23,475 nt of DNA from a virus (taxonomy: Duplodnaviria; Heunggongvirae; Uroviricota; Caudoviricetes), in the IMG/VR virus record IMGVR_UViG_2529293249_000015, positions 1 to 23,475 of that record. One strand, given 5' to 3'. Positions 3,165-20,821 of this stretch are shown here, in pieces; position 1 is the first letter of the stretch, and every line of letters begins with the position of its first letter. The translations under genes were made by a program, and so were the position numbers. A model generated the notes under the pieces. It ran no database searches and was not told the DNA's origin. It saw nothing but the letters and a program-made list of their open reading frames with translations.

Positions 3165-4265
3165 TCATTCAATTTCGAAATCATCAATCTTCACTTCAAG
3201 CTCCAGACTGGTCGTAAAACCGTTATCCGGGCTGACAGTATGCGTCAGGGTGGTAATGGTCCATTCCGCATCATCTATCGGCTGTTTAAAGCCACTGACC
3301 TTCACAGGCATTTCCGTGTAGAGATCTGCCCGACCTTCTGCCAGTTGTAGCGAGAATGACGCAACGCCGCGTTGCAGGCGTTCCCACTGCATTTTCGCCG
3401 CTCGTTCGGCGTTGCTCCGGTTGGCATAAGTGCGATTAAGTACCAGCACGTTTTCATCCGTACCCACCAGGTAATCGCCCTGCTTCGCTTCCGGCTCTTT
3501 CTTCTGCTTCTTAGTCCTGCGCTTACGCTTCACCGTGGTGCTTTCTTTCTTCTCGGGTTCGCGGGTATGCAACCAGCTGGCAATTACGCCCGTGTAGGCT
3601 CCGCGATCTGCCAGGGTAAAGCGGTGACTGTCGCCGTCCTTGCGTGTGATAGTGATAACCGGTAGTGGTTTACCGCTGGCGCTTTTGCCCTGTCCCTGCC
3701 GAATGAATAACAGATTGCCATTTTTCACCGACGCAATAGCACCGTACTGGCGCGCCAGCCGCATCAAAAAACTGCCGTCACTTTCATTGGTCTGGTCTAT
3801 ATGATCCACGGGTTTATTCGACAGGTCTTTACCCAGTGCCATCTTCAGTTTGTGCCGCGCGGCTATTTCCTTCACCACTTCCCCGACTGTGGTCTTGTGC
3901 CACGACTTTTCACGGCGGGTATTCAGCGTTTCACGAAAATCAGCACTTCGCGCCCGGATAGTCAGGCGATCCGGCGCGCCAGTGTGTTCAATCTCGTCCA
4001 CCGTGAATGCCCCTTTCGGGAAAAGCGGCTGCCCCTTCCAGCCCAGCGCCAGCGTAATGACCGCACCACGGCGCGGCAGCGCGATTTTTCTGTCGGCGTC
4101 GTCCAGTTCCAGATCAAGCTGGTCTGCTTCAAAGCCCCGGTTATCCGTCAACGTCAGCCCCATCAGGCGGTTGTCCAGCACAGTGGTGATATCCCTGCCC
4201 TCAATACTGATGCTGAATGCCGGAGTTTTGTTGCCTTTCTTAAGCAGTTCAGAGCTGAAATTCAC
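3165..4265 (-). CDS. D: tail protein D (late control gene D homologue)
   Basis: 366-aa ORF, GTG start overlapping the U stop; position and size match P2 gpD. Confidence 0.85.
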   Translation of the reverse strand: MNFSSELLKKGNKTPAFSISIEGRDITTVLDNRLMGLTLTDNRGFEADQLDLELDDADRKIALPRRGAVITLALGWKGQPLFPKGAFTVDEIEHTGAPDRLTIRARSADFRETLNTRREKSWHKTTVGEVVKEIAARHKLKMALGKDLSNKPVDHIDQTNESDGSFLMRLARQYGAIASVKNGNLLFIRQGQGKSASGKPLPVITITRKDGDSHRFTLADRGAYTGVIASWLHTREPEKKESTTVKRKRRTKKQKKEPEAKQGDYLVGTDENVLVLNRTYANRSNAERAAKMQWERLQRGVASFSLQLAEGRADLYTEMPVKVSGFKQPIDDAEWTITTLTHTVSPDNGFTTSLELEVKIDDFEIE

Positions 4266-10144: not shown

Positions 10145-10711
10145 TCAGGGGGATTCATTACTCTTATTTGCCGGAAATTTTCTATAAATTGTGGAAACAC
10201 CCACATCAAAAATCAGTGCAATACGCTGTCTTGATTCTCCGCCCTCGAGTAAGCGTCCAATCTGTGCCCACTGTTCGGTGGTCAACTTAGGACGGCGTCC
10301 ACCTACTCTGCCTTTATCACGAGCTGCAGCCAGCCCCGCCCTGGTACGTTCAACTATCAGTTCGCGTTCCATTTCAGCTAGGGCCCCCATGACATGAAAA
10401 AAGAAACGGCCCATTGGGGTGCTGGTATCAATACTGTCAGTCAGGCTTCGGAAATTCACGCCACACTGACGCAACTCTTCTATCAGCGTAACAAGATGCC
10501 GCATACTGCGCCCCAACCTGTCCAGCTTCCAGACAACCAGAGTGTCTCCTGCCGATAGTGTCCTGAGCAGTTTTTTAAGCCCCGGTCTGTCGGACTTAGT
10601 GCCACTGATTTTATCCTCAAAAATCCGCTCACATCCCGCGCAGTTCAGTGCATTACGTTGCAAATCGGTGTTCTGGTCATTTGTTGACACGCGTACATAG
10701 CCAATAAGCAT
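10145..10711 (-). CDS. serine-recombinase DNA invertase (Gin/Hin/Cin/Pin family)
   Basis: 188 aa from MLIGYVRVSTNDQNTDLQRNAL with catalytic Ser motif and C-terminal helix-turn-helix; near-identical in stretches to Gin/Hin. The tracked ORF has a 15-codon upstream extension; the ATG at 10711 has an RBS. Confidence 0.9.
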   Translation of the reverse strand: MLIGYVRVSTNDQNTDLQRNALNCAGCERIFEDKISGTKSDRPGLKKLLRTLSAGDTLVVWKLDRLGRSMRHLVTLIEELRQCGVNFRSLTDSIDTSTPMGRFFFHVMGALAEMERELIVERTRAGLAAARDKGRVGGRRPKLTTEQWAQIGRLLEGGESRQRIALIFDVGVSTIYRKFPANKSNESP

Positions 10712-10778
10712 GATCAATCCCCTGAATAAAAACCGTGGATGATGCCAGTTAGCCATTATCTCTGCATTTTCATAAACG

Positions 10779-10809
10779 TTGGTTTGGGAGAAGCGGCAAA
10801 ACGGAATGT
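10779..10809. repeat. left inverted repeat of invertible segment (recombination site)
   Basis: 31-bp sequence ttggtttgggagaagcggcaaaacggaatgt, a perfect reverse-complement match to 12293..12323. Confidence 0.8.
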
Positions 10810-11134
10810 GGGAACAGGTTCAGGTCAGATACCGGATATGAGTAGCTTTGCATCAGCACTCTCTTCGAGTGGCTACCAGAAATTACCTTCTGGACTAATT
10901 ATTCAGTGGGGGGCGGCTGTTGCTGGAATTGGCAGCACTGGGGGTACAGGAAATGTAGTCTCATTCCCTGTTGCATTCCCCAGATATTGCGCCCAAATAA
11001 TTACATCTTACGATAATGGAAGCTCGTCAATCATTGCTGGTGCAGCAGGAAACCAAACTACCACTCAATTTCTTTTACGTTGTGGTGCAACCGGTGGTAG
11101 TTATAACTTCCGCTGGTTAGCCGTGGGGTATTAA
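10781..11134 (+). other. alternative tail-fibre C-terminal (receptor-binding) cassette, currently unexpressed orientation
   Basis: Begins in frame at the repeat with GLGEAAKRNVG, the same residues found at the H crossover point, and continues as a different fibre tip (...QIPDMSSFASALSSSGYQKLPSGLIIQWG...). Confidence 0.7.
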
Positions 11135-11136
11135 TT

Positions 11137-11580
11137 ATGGATAACTACTATTTTTCACCTTCGACTTTGGCATTTTATCCTGAAGATCTCATGTTGTTAT
11201 ATGAAGCAGCAGGAACTTTACCTGATGATATTATTTCTGTGCCACATGAAATATTTGCTACTTATTCAGGAGAGCCACCACGAGGAAAAAAGCGAGGTAC
11301 TACAGAAGATGGGCAGCCCACCTGGAGTAATCTGCCGCCTTTAAGTCATGAGGAAGAAGTTGAGGTTGCGGACGCCCAAAGACAGTTTCGTATTGATGAG
11401 GCGAACGACTACATGAATAGTAAGCAATGGCCAGGTAAAGCCGCTATTGGTCGTCTGAAAGGCGAGGAACTGGCGCAATATAATTCGTGGCTGGATTATC
11501 TGGACGCACTGGAGCTGGTCGATACTTCCGGTGCGCCAGATATTGAATGGCCTACACCTCCGGTAACTCAGGCCAGCTAA
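11137..11580 (+). CDS. tail-fibre assembly protein, alternative-orientation copy
   Basis: 147-aa ORF ending in the conserved tail-fibre-assembly motif VDTSGAPDIEWPTPP; follows the alternative fibre tip. Confidence 0.8.
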   Translation: MDNYYFSPSTLAFYPEDLMLLYEAAGTLPDDIISVPHEIFATYSGEPPRGKKRGTTEDGQPTWSNLPPLSHEEEVEVADAQRQFRIDEANDYMNSKQWPGKAAIGRLKGEELAQYNSWLDYLDALELVDTSGAPDIEWPTPPVTQAS

Positions 11581-11947
11581 TCTCAGGAGCCGTCGAAGTG
11601 TCGACGGCTTTTACTTCTTTTTTGTAGTCCATCCAGGCAGATAGTTTTTCTTTATCTGTACTGCTGATATCACCAAGCATTAATTCCACCCGCCAGTCAG
11701 CTGTGACATTATCGGCATGAGCAAGTAACTGCATTCGCTGATTTTCAGCACGTGCGACATAATCAATCGCCGGAGATTTCAGTACCGGTAAACCATTTTC
11801 ATCTGACGTGATTAATTTCCCCCCTTCCTGCTGTCCGGCAATTAATTCATTGTATAAGTCTGTACTTATCTCAACAATGTCAGCAGACATGTCGCTGTTT
11901 ATACCATCAAAGAAAAAACCATTAGTCGATTTTGAGAAATAAATCAT
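11552..11947 (-). CDS. tail-fibre assembly protein, active-orientation copy (P2 G position)
   Basis: 131 aa from MIYFSKSTNGFFFDG, ending in VDTSTAPEISWPELP; starts just after the H stop; overlaps the opposite assembly gene by 29 bp at the 3' ends. Confidence 0.8.
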   Translation of the reverse strand: MIYFSKSTNGFFFDGINSDMSADIVEISTDLYNELIAGQQEGGKLITSDENGLPVLKSPAIDYVARAENQRMQLLAHADNVTADWRVELMLGDISSTDKEKLSAWMDYKKEVKAVDTSTAPEISWPELPEV

Positions 11948-11955
11948 AGATATAC

Positions 11956-13371
11956 CTATACACCGATTGCTACCCAAAAACAGGACCTTTCATATTTGAC
12001 AATTTCTCCCTGAGATATACCGCCAACAATTATATAGAACTGTGATTTGCTGATATCAGAACAGTTCGCTATGCCCATTGCAGATATACCAGCCACCGAC
12101 GTTGTATGTGGCACAGCCAACAGCGCAAGTGAACGATTTGGGAATGTTACCGGGTAAGTCACCGTATAGTTTGATGCTCCACTGACAATACCCCACTGAA
12201 TAATCAGACCTGAAGGGAGTTTTTGAAACCCCGTTGATGAAAGTGAACTGGCAAACGCCGCCATATCCGGAATTTGGTTTTGCTCGTTACCTACATTCCG
12301 TTTTGCCGCTTCTCCCAAACCAAGGTATGTGAGAAGACCAGTTACATCCTTTCCACTCAAATTAGTCAGCGTATTGTCCAGCGGTTGTTTACCTGCCAGT
12401 GCATTAAGCATTGTCGTGGCAAAGTTCGGGTCATTCCCCAGCGCCGCCGCCAGTTCGTTCAGTGTATCCAGTGCCGCAGGTGCAGAACCCACCATTGCCG
12501 CAATCGCCGATTTCACAAATGCCGTGGTGGCAATTTGTGTATTGTTGACCGACTGTGCCGCAGTAGGTGCGGTTGGCGTTCCGGTGAGTGCCGGACTCGA
12601 CAGCGGCGCTTTCAGTGCCAGCGCATTGTTAATGGTGGTACTGAATTTCGGATCATTGTTAATGGCTGCGGCTATTTCTTTCAGCGTGTCCAGCGTGGCT
12701 GGCGCACCATTAATAAGGGCCGTCAGTGCCGCCTGTACAAACGCAGTGGTCGCAACCTGCGTGGTATTATTCCCCGCCGCTGGCGTTGGCGCTTTGGGGG
12801 TTCCGGTAAATGTCGGGCTGGCTTTTGGCGCGTACTGTGAATGCGGGTCCGGTGCGGCAAGATGTTTTGCCATCTGATCATCCGCGTACACCTTCAGCTC
12901 CAGTGCCTTGTCATCCACATACTTGCGGGTTGCCAGCACTACAGCAGGGTCGATTTTCAGGGTGATATTGTCCGTGCTGCTGGTAATCAGCACCATGCGC
13001 ACGGTCTGAGTGCGCCCGCTACCTTCAGCCAGTTGCGGCTTATAGCTTTCCGGGCAGTTGCCCACGGCAATCAATGCCCCGGACTCATCAAACAAGCCCA
13101 CTTCACGTATCCACCAACCGCCCTCGTTTTCAGGGATCACCTGTTCGGCAATAATCTGGCTGCTGTTCTGCGGGTCGATATAAAGCATATTCAGCGCAGC
13201 CCGGCGTTTCTCATTTACCAGTGCCGTCTGCTTTGCGTCCGGCGTTGGCAATACTCCACCGCCATCGCCCACCGCCATATGGGTAATTTTTAGCGGCACA
13301 CCGAGCGCGGCGGCGCTGGCAAGTTTCGCCGCGCCAATATCCGTCAGCAGGGTATAAAATTTTGTGCTCAT
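11956..13371 (-). CDS. H: tail fibre protein H
   Basis: 471-aa ORF with P2 gpH-like N-terminus (MSTKFYTLLTDIGAAKLASAAALGVP); the C-terminal 122 aa lie inside the invertible segment. Confidence 0.9.
   Translation of the reverse strand: MSTKFYTLLTDIGAAKLASAAALGVPLKITHMAVGDGGGVLPTPDAKQTALVNEKRRAALNMLYIDPQNSSQIIAEQVIPENEGGWWIREVGLFDESGALIAVGNCPESYKPQLAEGSGRTQTVRMVLITSSTDNITLKIDPAVVLATRKYVDDKALELKVYADDQMAKHLAAPDPHSQYAPKASPTFTGTPKAPTPAAGNNTTQVATTAFVQAALTALINGAPATLDTLKEIAAAINNDPKFSTTINNALALKAPLSSPALTGTPTAPTAAQSVNNTQIATTAFVKSAIAAMVGSAPAALDTLNELAAALGNDPNFATTMLNALAGKQPLDNTLTNLSGKDVTGLLTYLGLGEAAKRNVGNEQNQIPDMAAFASSLSSTGFQKLPSGLIIQWGIVSGASNYTVTYPVTFPNRSLALLAVPHTTSVAGISAMGIANCSDISKSQFYIIVGGISQGEIVKYERSCFWVAIGV
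12293..12323. repeat. right inverted repeat of invertible segment (recombination site, inside H)
   Basis: Reverse complement is identical to 10779..10809; encodes GLGEAAKRNVG in the H frame. Confidence 0.8.
12382..12816 (-). repeat. tandem duplication of a roughly 70-aa module within H
   Basis: Two adjacent units, TGTPKAPTPAAGNNTTQVATTAFVQAALTALINGAPATLDTLKEIAAAINNDPKFSTTINNALALKAP and TGTPTAPTAAQSVNNTQIATTAFVKSAIAAMVGSAPAALDTLNELAAALGNDPNFATTMLNALAGKQP. Confidence 0.6.
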
Positions 13372-16310: not shown

Positions 16311-16734
16311 GTTTCACCGTCCACATTTCTTCAGGTTCATCGGGTTCCGTTATCGCTTCAACGCTCGACACACTTCCGTCAGTGCTGACCAGCACACGCT
16401 CCGTCAGCTGCAGGTTCAGGCTGATATCACAGACATCGTTGCGCAGAATATCCACTTCAAAGGTGAATAGCTTTTCCCGTAACGTCGGGTTATTGATGGC
16501 ATCAGACTGGTTATCCCGCAGCCACAGCAAAACCGGGGCCATCAGCAGATTCTGGTCGCCGCTGAAATCTTCAATCACCACGTTAAGGGTGTAGCGGTAC
16601 TCCCATGACATGGAGCTGGCCCCGGTGGCAACCAGCGAACCGTTATCCACAAACAGATGCAGTTTGTCCGGGTTATTACGGACATAAGGCACTGCTTTAT
16701 TGAGGGCGTGGCGCAGGGATTGTGGTTTGTTCAC
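16303..16734 (-). CDS. R: tail completion protein R
   Basis: 143 aa from GTG (VNKPQSLRHALNKAV...) preceded by AGGAGCGAAACA; the tracked ORF begins 7 codons upstream at TTG. Confidence 0.75.
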   Translation of the reverse strand: MNKPQSLRHALNKAVPYVRNNPDKLHLFVDNGSLVATGASSMSWEYRYTLNVVIEDFSGDQNLLMAPVLLWLRDNQSDAINNPTLREKLFTFEVDILRNDVCDISLNLQLTERVLVSTDGSVSSVEAITEPDEPEEMWTVKRG

Positions 16735-16987
16735 TGTTTCGCTCCTGACACGCAATAATCATGTCCACTTTGTCTGCACAGACCGCCCAGGCGGCCTCCG
16801 TTTCATCCAGCAATGCGTTCAGATCACCGTTATTGTGTGGCGCTGCCTGATCCAGCTGACACGGCGTCACTCGCGGACAACCACTGACGGTAAGCTGCAC
16901 CTCCGGTGAGTGCCGGACGTTCCCGCAGCCGGATAATGTCAGCAGGCAAAGGAGTATCAGCCCAGCGGCGTAAATCCTCGTTCTCAC
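16697..16987 (-). CDS. lysC: LysC, outer-membrane lipoprotein spanin (Rz1-like), nested in lysB
   Basis: 96-aa ORF with lipoprotein signal and lipobox LTLSGC, Pro-rich mature region; starts inside lysB in another frame and ends overlapping the R start. Confidence 0.7.
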   Translation of the reverse strand: MRTRIYAAGLILLCLLTLSGCGNVRHSPEVQLTVSGCPRVTPCQLDQAAPHNNGDLNALLDETEAAWAVCADKVDMIIACQERNSEQTTIPAPRPQ

Positions 16988-17258
16988 GTTTCAGTTCCTC
17001 AATCCGGCGTTGTCGTTGTCTCAGCAGTGCACTGGTCTGTTCTGCTTCGGCATAGAGCCGCGCCTGCTCCCGGTTGTTAGTTTCAGTCAGAATGGACAGG
17101 CTGATAAGCTGGTTGTTGCTCTTTGCCAGCGCCTGGCTTTTGCTCTGCAGCTCGTCTGCCTGCGTGCTGATGGTCTGGCTGGCATCAGCCAGCCGCCACG
17201 TCTGCCAGCCCAGCGCCGTCAGTAATAACGCCAGCACACCCAGCAGCAACCGGTTCAT
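16830..17258 (-). CDS. lysB: LysB, inner-membrane spanin (Rz-like)
   Basis: 142-aa ORF: N-terminal transmembrane helix (LLLGVLALLLTALGW) then coiled-coil-like charged region; start overlaps the lysA stop. Confidence 0.8.
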   Translation of the reverse strand: MNRLLLGVLALLLTALGWQTWRLADASQTISTQADELQSKSQALAKSNNQLISLSILTETNNREQARLYAEAEQTSALLRQRQRRIEELKRENEDLRRWADTPLPADIIRLRERPALTGGAAYRQWLSASDAVSAGSGSATQ

Positions 17259-17632
17259 GCTGCTACCTGTTGCGCCATCTGATTACGGGTGATCCAGAAG
17301 GCAATAACGGTCAGTAGATAAAAGACCAGGGTAATAGCCCACTCCGTCCAGGCGAGACTTACGACAATCAGCAATCGCATCACCCAGCTGATAAATACGT
17401 TTTCTTTTCGGGTAATTGTCTTCAGCAAAGATGCCCTCAACTCCTGCCAGAGCGGGCCATTCTTAATTAACGCAGCCAGTGCTACCGGAATTACCGCCCA
17501 TGTCAGCAAACAGGCTACCCAAACGCCGGACGCTGCCAGTACCGGAAAAATCCCCTGCGGATACACCATTGCGGCGATTAACAGCGCCATCCATAACATC
17601 AGAAACAGCCCGCTGATTAATTTCTTTTTCAT
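17255..17632 (-). CDS. lysA: LysA-like membrane protein (lysis timing)
   Basis: 125 aa from MKKKLISGLFLMLWMALLIAAM with about four predicted transmembrane helices; the ATG at 17632 has an RBS and follows the endolysin stop. A longer upstream start at 17704 is possible. Confidence 0.6.
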   Translation of the reverse strand: MKKKLISGLFLMLWMALLIAAMVYPQGIFPVLAASGVWVACLLTWAVIPVALAALIKNGPLWQELRASLLKTITRKENVFISWVMRLLIVVSLAWTEWAITLVFYLLTVIAFWITRNQMAQQVAA

Positions 17633-17633
17633 T

Positions 17634-18146
17634 TCAGTTTGCTCCCTGTAAACACCAGGCCATCTCCCGCGCACGGCGGTTATCCAGCCCCTGATTAAAC
17701 ACACCTTTTACATAAACCCAGCGCGGCAACTGTCGGCACGCATCCGCCCAGCGCCGCTGATTGAGTAATTTCACCAGCGTGGAACTGCAGGCATTGCCCG
17801 TTCCCACGTTGAAGGCAAACGACACCGCAGCGTCATATACCTTCTGCGGCGGCTGTTGTTTCACACACCTTTCCAGCGCCCGCTCCACACGCAGCACGTT
17901 GGAAATCAGTCCTTCTGCTGCCTGTCGTTCCGTAATGGTTTTGCCGGGAATGACGCCTGACGTGTTACCAATGCCGTCGGTCCAGACGCCCGCGCTGCAC
18001 TGATACGGCTGCAGACGACAGCCTTCGTAATCGGCAATCAGTTTCAGCCCCTCCACGGAGGTGTGAAGCTGCTGAAACCCCGGCAGCGTGGCAGCAATAG
18101 CCAGCACGGCCCCGACAAGGCAGCGTTTAACGATTGATGGATTCAT
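17634..18146 (-). CDS. SAR (signal-anchor-release) endolysin, T4-lysozyme fold (P2 K position)
   Basis: 170-aa ORF; N-terminal weakly hydrophobic Ala/Gly-rich helix (CLVGAVLAIAATLPGF) then YEGCRLQPYQCSAGVWTDGIGNT, closely resembling P1 Lyz / phage 21 R type lysozymes. Confidence 0.85.
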   Translation of the reverse strand: MNPSIVKRCLVGAVLAIAATLPGFQQLHTSVEGLKLIADYEGCRLQPYQCSAGVWTDGIGNTSGVIPGKTITERQAAEGLISNVLRVERALERCVKQQPPQKVYDAAVSFAFNVGTGNACSSTLVKLLNQRRWADACRQLPRWVYVKGVFNQGLDNRRAREMAWCLQGAN

Positions 18147-18342
18147 AGTCCTCCCGCGAGATCTGCCCGTCGCGCAGAAGCTGGTAGGCTTTGTGTTTGT
18201 AGTACCAGTTGATAGCCAGCATCAGCACACCAATCATCAGGCCGCCCAGCGTTGAGGCATCCTTGATGGACAAATCGCCCAGCCAGGCCAGCACAACGGC
18301 GATGCAGTACGTGATAAAGGCGCTGATTCGCTCAAGCGTCAT
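18127..18342 (-). CDS. class II holin (two TMDs, possible pinholin; P2 Y position)
   Basis: 71-aa ORF with two hydrophobic helices (ISAFITYCIAVVLAWLG; LGGLMIGVLMLAINWYY) and charged C-terminus; GGGAG RBS; overlaps the endolysin start. Confidence 0.7.
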   Translation of the reverse strand: MTLERISAFITYCIAVVLAWLGDLSIKDASTLGGLMIGVLMLAINWYYKHKAYQLLRDGQISREDYESINR

Positions 18343-18345
18343 AAT

Positions 18346-18549
18346 TCACTCCCATAGCTGGACGGTCTGCACGGTGGTGGTGGTCGGAATGTCCGGCAGC
18401 TCCACCTGCAGCCCGTGAGGTAAAAAGGGGCCATATTCGGCAAGCCCCGGATTTGCCTTCAGTACCTGCTCCGTGACACCCTGCGTGCGCCCGTAATGAC
18501 GCCAGCAAAGCGCGTCCACCGTGTCATACTGATGCGCACGCACTTTCAT
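18346..18549 (-). CDS. X: tail protein X
   Basis: 67-aa ORF (MKVRAHQYDTVDALCWRHYGRTQGV...) matching P2 gpX in length and sequence pattern. Confidence 0.8.
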   Translation of the reverse strand: MKVRAHQYDTVDALCWRHYGRTQGVTEQVLKANPGLAEYGPFLPHGLQVELPDIPTTTTVQTVQLWE

Positions 18550-19762: not shown

Positions 19763-20821
19763 TTACGCTCCGGTTTCGGCTGCGGCGGCGCTGAAATCAC
19801 CAATCTGGATGTTTTCCACCAGTGCGGCGCAGCGGTAGTCCTCAACCACATAGGCTTCATTAACGGATTCAAAGTTTTCAATCCGGTCACGTTTCGGGTT
19901 GTCGATAACTGAACGGCGGCGGGTGTCTTCCTGCCAGTAGATGGACAGGTTATCCAGACGGGTGATCAGCAGTGCATTCGGCGGGAAGAACGGCGCACGC
20001 ACGGCCTGCAGGCCACCCATGCGTTTCTGACTGATGATCATATCGGCAGCCAGTTTTTCACTGTTTTCCTGCTCTTTGTTGACCAGTGGGAAATACTTGT
20101 CAGACAACAGTTCACGGCCGCAAATCACCACCAGATCGTCATCGTCCTGGTAGACCACGTCGATAAGCTCATTGACGGCATCCATCACCACGGCGTCCAG
20201 GTTGGCATATTCGCCACCTTTCCCGACTTTCACCGCACCCGGTGTGGTTTCACCGCCCGTGGTGGTGCTGCCCATGACGTGATCCGGTGCATCCTCACGG
20301 ATTTTCTGCAGCCAGCCTTTATTCACATCCTGCAGCAGCGGGTTTTCGCTACGGTTTGAGGTTTTCGCACGCTTCACGCCGTTAAAGCCGATCATGATGC
20401 GGTCCAGTGCCTGACGTTTCACGATCGCGTCACGAATACGCACCTGGAAATCCTGAAACTTCGCCCACAGGTCCAGCTTCGCGTAGGTCAGCACCGTGTC
20501 AAAGTTGGTCTGCTCGCATTTGTATTCCACATCGACCATCAGCGTCGGATCGACAGGCTCACGCTCTTTTGCGGTGGTATCAGTGGTTCCGGCAATGGTG
20601 CTGCCAACACCCAGCCCCAGCAGCTGACCAGACTGCTCGGTCACTGGCGTGACGTTAATCAGCGTCAGGAAAGCGGCGGATTGCTGGATCTGGTCTTCCA
20701 GCGTCTGCTGCACAGACGGCTCCACGGTGAACTTGCTGGACAGTTCTTCAACTGCCACACCGTTCAGACGCGCCAGCTGCTGCAGGTAAGCGTTAAAAGC
20801 AAAGCGGGTATTCTTCTTCAT
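19763..20821 (-). CDS. N: major capsid protein N
   Basis: 352-aa ORF (MKKNTRFAFNAYLQQLARLNGV) resembling P2 gpN in length and sequence. Confidence 0.95.
   Translation of the reverse strand: MKKNTRFAFNAYLQQLARLNGVAVEELSSKFTVEPSVQQTLEDQIQQSAAFLTLINVTPVTEQSGQLLGLGVGSTIAGTTDTTAKEREPVDPTLMVDVEYKCEQTNFDTVLTYAKLDLWAKFQDFQVRIRDAIVKRQALDRIMIGFNGVKRAKTSNRSENPLLQDVNKGWLQKIREDAPDHVMGSTTTGGETTPGAVKVGKGGEYANLDAVVMDAVNELIDVVYQDDDDLVVICGRELLSDKYFPLVNKEQENSEKLAADMIISQKRMGGLQAVRAPFFPPNALLITRLDNLSIYWQEDTRRRSVIDNPKRDRIENFESVNEAYVVEDYRCAALVENIQIGDFSAAAAETGA

Follow-up and report, generated by a model that had tools for sequence, protein, structure and literature searches.

The 23,475-nucleotide window, the whole stretch of viral DNA analyzed here (IMG/VR record IMGVR_UViG_2529293249_000015), carries the holin-endolysin core of a lysis cassette belonging to a P2-like (Peduoviridae) prophage (Table 1). 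A preliminary description, made from the letters of the sequence, had given exact outer coordinates for the pair (17634-18342) and the 71 aa of the holin. It had also placed the pair in the K/Y position of a P2-like late operon, which agrees with the gene order: X, holin, endolysin, lysA-like, lysB, lysC, R, S. The two core genes overlap, with the endolysin ATG lying inside the holin codons for ...DYESINR-stop and the sequence GGGAGGA 2-3 nt upstream of this ATG. A GGGAG-type ribosome-binding site precedes the start codon of each of the two genes.

Table 1. Lysis genes and their features within the window
Feature	Position	Strand	Description	Evidence
Holin gene	18127-18342	-	71 aa, class II, two helices	ORF
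Holin TMD1	18277-18327	-	residues ~6-22	
Holin TMD2	18199-18258	-	residues ~29-48	
Holin 3' end / endolysin 5' end overlap	18127..18146	-	20 nt	read from sequence
Endolysin gene	17634-18146	-	170 aa, GH24 "true lysozyme" with N-terminal SAR-type segment	ORF
Cys9 codon	18120-18122	-		
Putative SAR (signal-anchor-release) domain	18075..18122	-	codons 9-24, CLVGAVLAIAATLPGF; 16 residues, uncharged, Ala/Gly-rich, after K7 R8	
Catalytic triad and caging Cys	17979..18026	-	codons 41-56, E41-G-C43-RLQPYQ-C50-SAGVW-T56	ungapped alignment to P1 Lyz E42/C44/C51/T57 and to HP1 Lys
LysA-position gene	17255..17632	-	125 aa, multi-TMD membrane protein	PHROG 162, E 1e-42; NCBIfam "DNZ54_00345 family"
LysB, Rz-like i-spanin	16830..17258	-	142 aa	TIGR03495 phage_LysB, 172 bits; PHROG 89
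LysC, Rz1-like o-spanin lipoprotein	16697..16987	-	96 aa, lipobox LSG/C21	NF038368 P2_Rz1, 121.7 bits; PF23793

Three further genes follow the core. The lysC gene overlaps the 3' end of lysB. The protein encoded at the LysA position resembles P2 LysA weakly, and in its C-terminal part only; precomputed Pfam matches to PF28015 ("LysA") are found on fusion alleles. The related cassettes L084-L088 lack the gene, which makes it an optional member, and its product may be an accessory of the lysis-timing or antiholin type.

The cassette is present in 1038 of 5426 complete E. coli genomes, or about one in five, and also in many Klebsiella prophages. The module is an ordinary one for a P2-like prophage that is very common in E. 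coli and Klebsiella; it is annotated in databases and is essentially already in the literature, and it is not novel.

The endolysin, its cysteines and its N-terminal segment

Residues 39-161 of the endolysin match the Pfam model PF00959 (Phage_lysozyme/GH24) with an E value of 4.6e-40 (137.3 bits, cutoff 22.3), so that the region first described as T4-lysozyme-like is a GH24 domain above the curated threshold. The triad of such enzymes, Glu-8x-Asp/Cys-5x-Thr, is found with exact spacing as E41, C50 and T56 [PMC3556154 defines the triad and describes what its Cys does in catalysis]. The closest solved structure by sequence is that of P1 Lyz (PDB 1XJT, the active form, and 1XJU, the inactive form; phmmer E 2e-26 to 1XJT). 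By BLASTP the two proteins are 37% identical (E 1e-33), a match that, as judged from sequence, is far beyond chance. Within it the block EGCRxxPYxCxAGVWTDGIGNT aligns without gaps and sets C43, C50, E41 and T56 opposite P1 C44, C51, E42 and T57. A Foldseek search with an AF2 model of the endolysin likewise returned 1XJT as its top match (TM 0.76). This model, whose input alignment was shallow and contained relatives with at least 79% identity, served for the fold search only; it has a mean pLDDT of 72, falling below 50 exactly over residues 41-68, the region that bears on the geometry of C9, C43 and C50. In RefSeq the enzyme is named "lysozyme" only.

The preliminary description had credited the enzyme with a three-cysteine pattern. 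Cys9, Cys43, Cys50 and Glu41 are all present, but the protein has seven cysteines rather than three (residues 9, 43, 50, 94, 120, 137 and 165), and exactly seven, at corresponding places, are found in each of the query, P1 Lyz and HP1 Lys. It had also equated the three with Cys13, Cys44 and Cys51 of P1 Lyz, an enzyme that is activated by disulfide isomerization once it has left the membrane. That comparison holds for C43 and C50, which are in exact register with C44 and C51, but the aligners leave Cys9 at a position other than that opposite C13. Among 28 relatives with 79-98% identity, all seven cysteines are invariant or nearly so. Cys9 is invariant in these 28, and the SAR residues that flank it vary. 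The caging Cys, C43, which lies seven residues upstream of C50 in the motif E-x-C, is conserved in at least 90% of the relatives; a natural C43G variant occurs in P0089.

More distant comparisons drew on 108 diverged representatives, 26 with an N-terminal hydrophobic stretch and 82 soluble. C43 and C50 occur together in 25 of the 26, and in 23 of these 25 a further Cys lies in or beside the hydrophobic stretch (rough binomial tail of 1e-10 against an expectation of 30%, phylogeny ignored). The C43/C50 pair is also present in 25 of the 82 soluble homologues; thus, the pair is not diagnostic by itself and may exist without a disulfide switch. The SAR Cys precedes the caging Cys by 34 residues in the query, by 31-34 in the diverged homologues and by 38 in HP1, giving a family range of 31-38. 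C137 and C165 are found together in 16 of the 26 exported-type homologues versus 3 of the 82 soluble ones, and a helix Cys, at position 90 or 94, covaries with a loop Cys. In these alignments, then, the four cysteines at 94, 120, 137 and 165 behave as two covarying pairs linked to export.

The presence of C43 and C50 in soluble homologues, where regulation by disulfides is unexpected, together with the C43G variant, leaves room for a SAR endolysin whose activation is purely conformational, as in R21, and in which C9, C43 and C50 were inherited and are unused as a switch. However, in exported forms the association of a SAR-embedded Cys with C43 and C50 is near-perfect and its spacing is conserved, the three residues are conserved within the family, and the disulfide mechanism is established for the closest characterized homologue (PMC3556154). 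A purely conformational activation is thus judged to be highly unlikely, and a disulfide switch that involves Cys9, Cys43 and Cys50 is the preferred reading.

The N-terminal segment had been described as weakly hydrophobic and rich in Ala and Gly, and its hydropathy is indeed comparable to that of the SAR segments of P1 Lyz and HP1 Lys. From C9 to F24, 44% of the residues are G, A, S or T, and the summed Hessa-scale dG is +1.35 (versus +1.20 for P1). Since such a sum, taken with the polar ends, distinguishes the SAR segment only imperfectly from the TMD of the i-spanin, values for the best 15-mer were added; these are +1.48 for the SAR segment versus -3.65 for LysA TMD1 and -2.19 for the LysB TMD, so that the segment is less hydrophobic than the stable TMDs found elsewhere in the cassette, in LysA and LysB. 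Cys9 immediately follows K7 R8, at the very N-edge of the hydrophobic stretch, whereas the SAR Cys of P1 lies inside it. Cys9 was also considered as the Cys of a lipoprotein and was rejected in this role because it has no lipobox (VKR/C).

The layout of the segment is the n-h-c of a Sec signal peptide, and it could also be one that is cleaved, in which case the enzyme would be secreted like Lys44 of phage fOg44 and its cysteines would form ordinary periplasmic disulfides. Speaking for this are the n-region with K7 R8, the short h-region, the Pro/Gly-containing, c-like "TLPGF" and the fact that HP1 Lys is called a signal peptide by predictors, as SAR domains typically are (PMC7312051). However, there is no good -3/-1 cleavage site, the sole plausible candidate, L21-P22-G23/F24, having Pro at -2. 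Furthermore, a discarded peptide would not explain why Cys9, which has no preceding lipobox, is invariant and stays at a conserved distance from the caging Cys even where the N-termini are otherwise unrelated. The active P1 Lyz structure, 1XJT, aligns from query residue 13 and thus includes most of the N-terminal segment, and the near-identical KP12.peg.319 was purified at its full-length mass of 18.6-18.7 kDa rather than the ~16.3 kDa of a cleaved form, although this last observation is weak evidence. Although none of these points is decisive, cleavage of the segment is considered very unlikely indeed, and the segment is better read as a putative SAR domain that would stay with the enzyme.

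The holin and the question of a pinholin

The upstream holin had been reported as a protein of 71 aa with two helices, as is the case. Its C-terminal tail, residues 49-71, is charged (5 K/R, 4 D/E), and its predicted topology is N-in/C-in. NCBI/RefSeq names it "HP1 family phage holin." It passes the cutoff of the Pfam model for the HP1 holin family (PF16080, 36.7 bits, cutoff 28.8), falls below that for the P21 holin S (PF04971, 23.2 versus 26), and matches PHROG 20, "holin," with an E value of 1.9e-26. When its family profile was compared to phage 21 S with hhalign, the probability was 66% (E 5e-5). Neither the pairwise comparison to HP1 Hol itself (21% identity, E 0.19) nor the profile comparison (hhalign probability 8%) is significant, and thus the holin is placed in the family by the Pfam model and by its match to the S21 profile.

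The holin relatives examined (80 IMG/VR loci, L084-L088, and Yersinia, Erwinia and Pseudomonas phages) all adjoin a SAR-type endolysin, with three SAR lysin subtypes represented, and none adjoins a soluble endolysin. In the 80 IMG/VR loci, collected by a scan with the holin alignment, the holin is 100% identical throughout, so that these loci show a constant endolysin partner rather than diversity. TMD2 carries a small-xxx-small face of S30/T31, G34 and G38, which is invariant or nearly so and aligns with the G40/S44/G48 region of S21. TMD1 differs from its counterparts in proven pinholins: its summed Hessa-scale dG is -0.6 with 35% G/A/S/T, versus +8.6 and 55% for S21 and +4.7 and 50% for HP1 Hol. 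By hydropathy, TMD1 is not SAR-like and looks stable, though hydropathy alone cannot decide this. The gene has a single start codon with no dual-start motif, R5 precedes TMD1, and the two-residue "KM" of the Yersinia and Erwinia relatives is absent.

The earlier reading of the module as one of SAR-endolysin/pinholin style is supported, and each of its elements that could be checked held, but for the pinholin there are caveats. Family membership, the S21 profile match, the TMD2 face and the linkage to SAR endolysins all agree with it, but TMD1 is not SAR-like by hydropathy, a dual start is lacking, and the small size of the protein, to which the preliminary description had appealed, is no evidence. 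Experimental evidence for pinholin function exists for HP1 Hol, the founder of the Pfam family (PMC7312051), and for phage 21 S (PMC6116005); for a holin identical to the one studied here, the heptamer model built by the KP12 authors is of low confidence (pLDDT ~51; PMC9902359). Hole size has been probed by lambda R complementation and leakage assays for HP1 Hol and for P1 LydD (PMC7312051; PMC9025707). With a TMD1 whose hydrophobicity exceeds that of proven pinholins and with a single start, the assignment of the present holin as a pinholin, made by analogy, is likely but unproven.

The same features would suit a class II holin of the canonical, large-hole kind, or one whose two TMDs are stable and undergo no topological switch, since a SAR endolysin needs only the depolarization that any holin gives; indeed, SAR endolysins can function with canonical holins such as P1 LydA and lambda S (PMC9025707; PMC6116005). 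The TMD1 hydrophobicity is that of ordinary TMDs, the similarity to HP1 Hol is weak, and the protein weakly resembles the final two TMDs of P2 Y, which is a canonical holin (E 1e-4), in addition to the R5 and the single start noted above. Set against these are the above-threshold match to the HP1 family, the profile match to S21, the conserved TMD2 face and the consistent absence of soluble endolysins next to the relatives examined. A canonical or topologically static holin is therefore possible but doubtful. In a more specific version, which we rate as unlikely, the holin lineage would have lost the topological dynamics of S21 and HP1 Hol and would trigger a P1-type SAR endolysin by a stable two-TMD mechanism, as the lack of a dual start and of "KM" and the fully hydrophobic TMD1 would allow; timing would then come perhaps from the LysA-position protein, and the lysozyme would have a C94-C120 disulfide that is shifted in register relative to the P1/HP1 positions. 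A small holin that is most likely a pinholin remains the favored reading.

Proposed lysis pathway and comparison with known systems

Gene structure, homology, residue correspondence, cysteine covariation and the co-occurrence of the holin family with SAR endolysins are observed here, while P1 Lyz, HP1 and phage 21 serve as the models for hole size and for the export, tethering, release and disulfide exchange of the endolysin. On this footing, we consider it quite probable that the locus is a P2-like prophage lysis core that consists of a SAR endolysin activated by a disulfide switch, a small holin, most likely a pinholin, and the spanins LysB and LysC. In such a pathway, which follows the general SAR/pinholin model (PMC6116005; PMC9025707), the host Sec system would export the endolysin, and its weakly hydrophobic N-terminal SAR helix (residues ~9-24) would tether it to the inner membrane with the lysozyme domain in the periplasm. 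The tethered enzyme would be inactive because the triad Cys50 would be disulfide-locked to Cys43, just as the catalytic Cys of P1 Lyz stays disulfide-bonded before the enzyme is activated (PMC3556154). The pairs C94-C120 and C137-C165 probably form disulfides with a structural role in the exported domain. Timed depolarization of the membrane would be provided by the 71-aa class II holin, most likely through the small holes of a pinholin, and would cause the SAR helix to exit the bilayer. Cys9, previously buried at the cytoplasmic edge of the membrane, could then attack the C43-C50 bond, forming C9-C43 and freeing Cys50, and refolding would yield the active E41/C50/T56 lysozyme. LysB and LysC would then disrupt the outer membrane, with the LysA-position protein as an optional modulator.

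While the cassette opens no new biological question, its annotation could be improved, since an enzyme labeled "lysozyme" could be described as a P1-Lyz-type SAR endolysin with named regulatory cysteines. A near-identical enzyme has already been explored as an antibacterial; Cys9, Cys43 and Cys50 probably gate activity, and this bears on the design of recombinant forms, for example a C43 variant or one that lacks the SAR segment.

The endolysin shares with P1 Lyz the GH24 fold family, the Glu-8x-Cys-5x-Thr triad, a caging Cys two residues after the Glu, an N-terminal SAR Cys and a total of seven cysteines. However, the identity is only the 37% given above, the SAR and caging cysteines are 34 residues apart rather than the 31 of P1, and an 11-residue loop after FNVG is missing from the query. 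The helix/loop pair of cysteines is also placed differently, at 94/120 in the query and at 91/118 in P1, the latter aligning with query A90/T116. Finally, the lyz gene of P1 is in a separate operon, and several holins (LydA, LydC and LydD) act with its product, whereas the query lysin follows one small holin. HP1 is similar as well: its Lys has the same seven-Cys pattern as the query endolysin, its hol and lys genes have a similar overlap, and the two products act experimentally as a pinholin and a SAR endolysin (Adamczyk-Poplawska et al. 2020, PMC7312051). In contrast, HP1 Hol has 78 aa and a less hydrophobic TMD1 and is only 21% identical to the query holin, and HP1 has neither a lysA-like gene nor a recognizable LysC, both of which are present in the query cassette.

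Much closer relatives are the cassettes of KP12 (peg.319/peg.320), Escherichia phage 500465-1 and Klebsiella phage 4LV2017, which are 96.6-97.6% identical at the nucleotide level. KP12.peg.319 is identical to the query endolysin at 167 of 170 residues, and KP12.peg.320 to the holin at all 71 of 71. Kim et al. (2023, PMC9902359) modeled KP12.peg.319 on 1XJT, described its SAR domain as conserved, purified the protein at full-length size and found it to be lytic; they did not analyze the cysteines and did not obtain a confident pinhole model of the holin. LysKpV475 was considered as a relative and set aside, as it is a different SAR lysin of the phiKMV type.

Like the query holin, phage 21 S21 is a class II protein of 71 aa with a small-residue face on TMD2 and a gene that adjoins that of a SAR endolysin. 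However, a Gly/Ser-rich insert gives S21 TMD1 a SAR-like character, and a dual start yields the antiholin S21-71; the query holin has neither the insert nor the dual start. The SAR lysins of the R21 type, such as the Yersinia phage lysin YenM_210.17, differ from the query enzyme in having Asp in the triad and no regulatory Cys. In P2 itself, the lysis genes occupy the same slot between X and R, and lysB and lysC are true homologues of those in the query. The core genes are another matter: the endolysin gives no significant alignment with P2 K (E 0.015 over 24 residues), and the holin, with 71 aa and 2 TMDs versus the 93 aa of P2 Y, has only weak similarity to the latter (28% over 54 residues). 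Thus, as far as these alignments reach, the hol/lys pair is a non-orthologous replacement of P2 Y/K, set within a P2-like frame of late genes.

The lysis cassette and its surroundings

The lysis genes belong to a P2-like prophage late operon on the minus strand of the window (table below). The preliminary description had placed the pair at 17634-18342, which corresponds precisely to the 71-aa and 170-aa ORFs. The holin and endolysin genes share a 20-nt overlap, and a GGGAG-type Shine-Dalgarno sequence lies upstream of each start codon.

Coordinates of the lysis genes and other features of the window
Feature	Position	Strand	Remark
N	19763-20821	-	late operon; M and L follow
X	18346-18549	-	directly before the holin ORF
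Holin, 71 aa	18127-18342	-	
Endolysin, 170 aa	17634-18146	-	
LysA-position membrane protein, 125 aa	17255-17632	-	
LysB	16830-17258	-	
LysC	16697-16987	-	R and S come after
Host YbjM and permease region	288-665 and 935-2620	- and +	left end of window
Hin/Gin-type serine invertase	10145-10756		Resolvase+HTH_7
Alternative tail-fibre tip	10739-11134		opposite orientation; Gp53-like_C
Second tail-fibre assembly gene	11137-11580		

The LysA-position gene is an optional member of the cassette. Its product, a "DNZ54_00345 family" protein with multiple TMDs, carries the wrong label "endolysin" in PHROGs and some phage records, and has a 143-aa counterpart in Erwinia phage EtG. In related prophages (L084-L088, with holins 56-73% identical) the endolysin gene leads straight to lysB. 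A single-G deletion in the endolysin W164 codon (window 17640-17660; GCCTGGTG to GCCTGTG) occurs in many public assemblies, complete genomes included. It joins endolysin residues 1-163, via the linker CVYREQTE, to the entire LysA-position protein, giving a 296-aa fusion (PF00959+PF28015; locus L094, 601-1491); collection entry P0012 and about 50 similar entries of this length represent it. Since P0012 alone appears on 24 contigs and in 48 indexed blocks of the collection, the fusion is a circulating allele and not a chance sequencing error; it probably represents a prophage variant defective in lysis.

Host chromosome makes up the left end of the window, where YbjM (PF11045) and a YbjL-type Asp-Al_Ex/TrkA_C permease are encoded; thus, the prophage end falls after about 2620 and before gene D (3165-4265). 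The invertase and alternative fibre genes (10145-11977) face the expressed H/G genes (11552-13371), and this region resembles the invertible host-range segments of Mu and P1.

Fold, cysteines and N-terminal segment of the endolysin

The T4-lysozyme-like catalytic region described previously is indeed present (Phage_lysozyme/GH24, PF00959, E 4.6e-40). The top solved relatives are the P1 Lyz structures 1XJT (E 2e-26) and 1XJU (5e-25), with R21, DLP12 RrrD and soluble GH24 enzymes scoring below them. BLASTP against P1 Lyz (sequence 100% identical to P1 record AF125376.2) gives 37% identity (E 1e-33). Because the catalytic block EGCRxxPYxCxAGVWTDGIGNT aligns without gaps, E41, C43, C50 and T56, all present in the endolysin, correspond to P1 E42, C44, C51 and T57, and the proposed register of C43/C50 with P1 C44/C51 is upheld. 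An AlphaFold2 model of moderate quality (mean pLDDT 72, <50 over residues 41-68) has active P1 Lyz, 1XJT, as its best PDB match in Foldseek (TM 0.76).

The preliminary description named three cysteines, with C43 and C50 flanking Glu41. C9, C43 and C50 are all there; however, the protein has seven cysteines (9, 43, 50, 94, 120, 137 and 165), and E41 precedes both C43 and C50. In a MAFFT alignment P1 Lyz and HP1 Lys likewise have exactly seven: one in the N-terminal hydrophobic segment (query 9, P1 13, HP1 11), the caging and catalytic pair common to all three, a C-terminal pair in register (query 137/165, P1 150/178, HP1 155/183), and a helix/loop pair, which the query has at 94/120 and P1 and HP1 have at the places of query A90/T116.

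Among 28 close relatives (79-98% identity), every cysteine except C43 is invariant, and C43 itself reaches at least 90% conservation, while the SAR residues surrounding C9 vary. In a natural variant from Dryocola sp. (P0089) the caging Cys43 is replaced by Gly (YEGGRLQ; column 43 of alignment A1), and C9 and C50 are kept; if the P1 model holds, this enzyme would be "uncaged".

The query, P1 Lyz and HP1 Lys were combined with library representatives <80% identical to the query to form a diverged set (n=108). An N-terminal hydrophobic stretch is present in 26; 25 of these carry C43+C50, and 23 of the 25 have a Cys in or beside the stretch, the two exceptions appearing N-terminally truncated. A crude binomial tail, which ignores relatedness, is 1e-10 against a 30% chance expectation. 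The distance from SAR to caging Cys is similar (31-34 in diverged homologues, 38 in HP1, 34 in the query), although the SAR sequences themselves are unrelated. The C43+C50 pair also occurs in 25/82 soluble GH24 homologues (no N-terminal TMD), and so is not by itself diagnostic of a disulfide switch; soluble enzymes with a catalytic Cys were noted previously by the phiCbK authors (PMC3556154). C137+C165 is nearly confined to exported forms (16/26 versus 3/82 soluble), and the helix Cys (position 90 or 94) covaries with the loop Cys. This covariation suggests that periplasmic forms have two structural disulfides of their own, of which one is register-shifted in the query lineage.

The N-terminus has K7 and R8, then 16 uncharged residues, CLVGAVLAIAATLPGF, then QQ. 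The weak hydrophobicity (table below; the scale values are those of Hessa et al.) and basic N side make this segment SAR-like, as first described.

Composition and hydropathy of N-terminal and membrane segments
Segment	G/A/S/T	Summed Hessa-scale dG	Best 15-mer
Query SAR segment	44%	+1.35	+1.48
P1 Lyz SAR	55%	+1.20	-1.02
HP1 Lys SAR	56%	-0.19	
LysA-position TMD1	25%	-2.54	-3.65
LysB TMD	33%	+0.99	-2.19

On sequence alone, cleavage of the segment as a signal peptide is possible but improbable. According to the HP1 authors, the SAR of HP1 Lys is scored as a signal peptide by SignalP (PMC7312051). In the query, LPG|F is the sole conceivable leader-peptidase site, and its -2 position is Pro. Cys9 is not preceded by a lipobox. 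The query is very probably a SAR endolysin, and it likely uses a P1-type disulfide switch.

The 71-aa holin

The proposed pinholin assignment was partly sustained. The holin exceeds the threshold of the Pfam HP1 holin family (36.7 bits; threshold 28.8) and falls narrowly below that of the P21 holin S family (23.2; threshold 26). A 24-sequence family profile matches phage 21 S (sequence 100% identical to OL657228.1) with a probability of 66% (E 5e-5). The family keeps S7, T11 and A15 in TMD1 and S30/T31, G34 and G38 in TMD2, the latter aligning with the S21 G40/S44/G48 region.

Gene linkage points the same way. An identical holin precedes the query-type endolysin in every one of 80 IMG/VR loci, and the same seven-Cys enzyme follows the 56-73% identical holins of Jejubacter, Enterobacter-type and Edwardsiella prophages. 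Relatives of 28-37% identity (Yersinia and Erwinia Peduoviridae) have an S21-like dual start, MGLKMEK..., and precede a seven-Cys SAR lysin; others are paired with an R21-type SAR lysin (one Yersinia phage) or a phiKMV-type SAR lysin (a phiKMV-like Pseudomonas phage). No soluble endolysin was seen beside any holin relative examined.

SAR endolysins also work with canonical holins (PMC6116005, PMC9025707), and the query holin could be canonical: its TMD1 matches ordinary TMDs in hydrophobicity (summed dG -0.6, versus +8.6 for S21 and +4.7 for HP1) and lacks the Gly/Ser-rich insert of S21 TMD1, the gene has a single start codon, and HP1 Hol itself is only weakly similar (21% identity, E 0.19; hhalign probability 8%). 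Nevertheless, because the relatives examined adjoin only SAR-type lysins and the profile matches are to the Pfam HP1 holin family and to S21, a pinholin is somewhat favored over a canonical holin.

Distant holins of Yersinia and Erwinia P2-like phages (L089, L091, L092) begin MGL[KST]MEKI..., an S21-like antiholin/holin dual start; the query-lineage N-terminus (18328-18342), MTLERI..., is shorter by two residues and no longer has the second Met. The query holin (18130-18342) also matches P2 Y (locus L095, 717-995; 28% over 54 residues, pairwise E 1e-4) across the last two TMDs of this three-TMD canonical holin, which hints at distant kinship between the two classes.

Lysis model and known systems

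The analysis demonstrates homology, residue register, cysteine covariation and gene linkage for the cassette, and these bear out the essentials of the preliminary description, a P1 Lyz-type SAR endolysin with a 71-aa two-TMD holin. Export, non-cleavage, release, disulfide exchange and hole size would follow P1, HP1 and phage 21. In the best explanation, built on this analogy, Sec would export the endolysin and the SAR helix would tether it, inactive, with C43 caging C50. Depolarization of the membrane by the holin would release the helix, allowing C9 to attack C43, free C50 and let the enzyme refold; spanins would then disrupt the outer membrane.

The cassette is ordinary, widespread and already annotated, and is effectively published for a near-identical phage. 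It is 96.6-97.6% identical in nucleotide sequence to Escherichia phage 500465-1 (Wadgaonvirus), vB_EcoM-813R9 and Klebsiella phages KP12 and 4LV2017, and is present in 1038/5426 complete E. coli genomes, some copies being 100% identical. RefSeq names its products "lysozyme", "HP1 family phage holin", LysB, LysC and "DNZ54_00345 family protein". The query holin and KP12.peg.320 are identical, and KP12.peg.319 differs from the endolysin at 3/170 residues. Kim et al. (2023) modelled KP12.peg.319 on 1XJT (TM-align 0.83), looked for its pinholin partner, purified it at full-length mass (18.6 kDa; calculated, 18.69 kDa) and obtained lytic spots, without discussing its cysteines (PMC9902359). P2-like phage HP1 has the same hol-lys arrangement, and HP1 experiments support a pinholin and SAR endolysin (PMC7312051). 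Relative to P2, the query pair is a non-orthologous replacement of Y/K, with lysB and lysC conserved.
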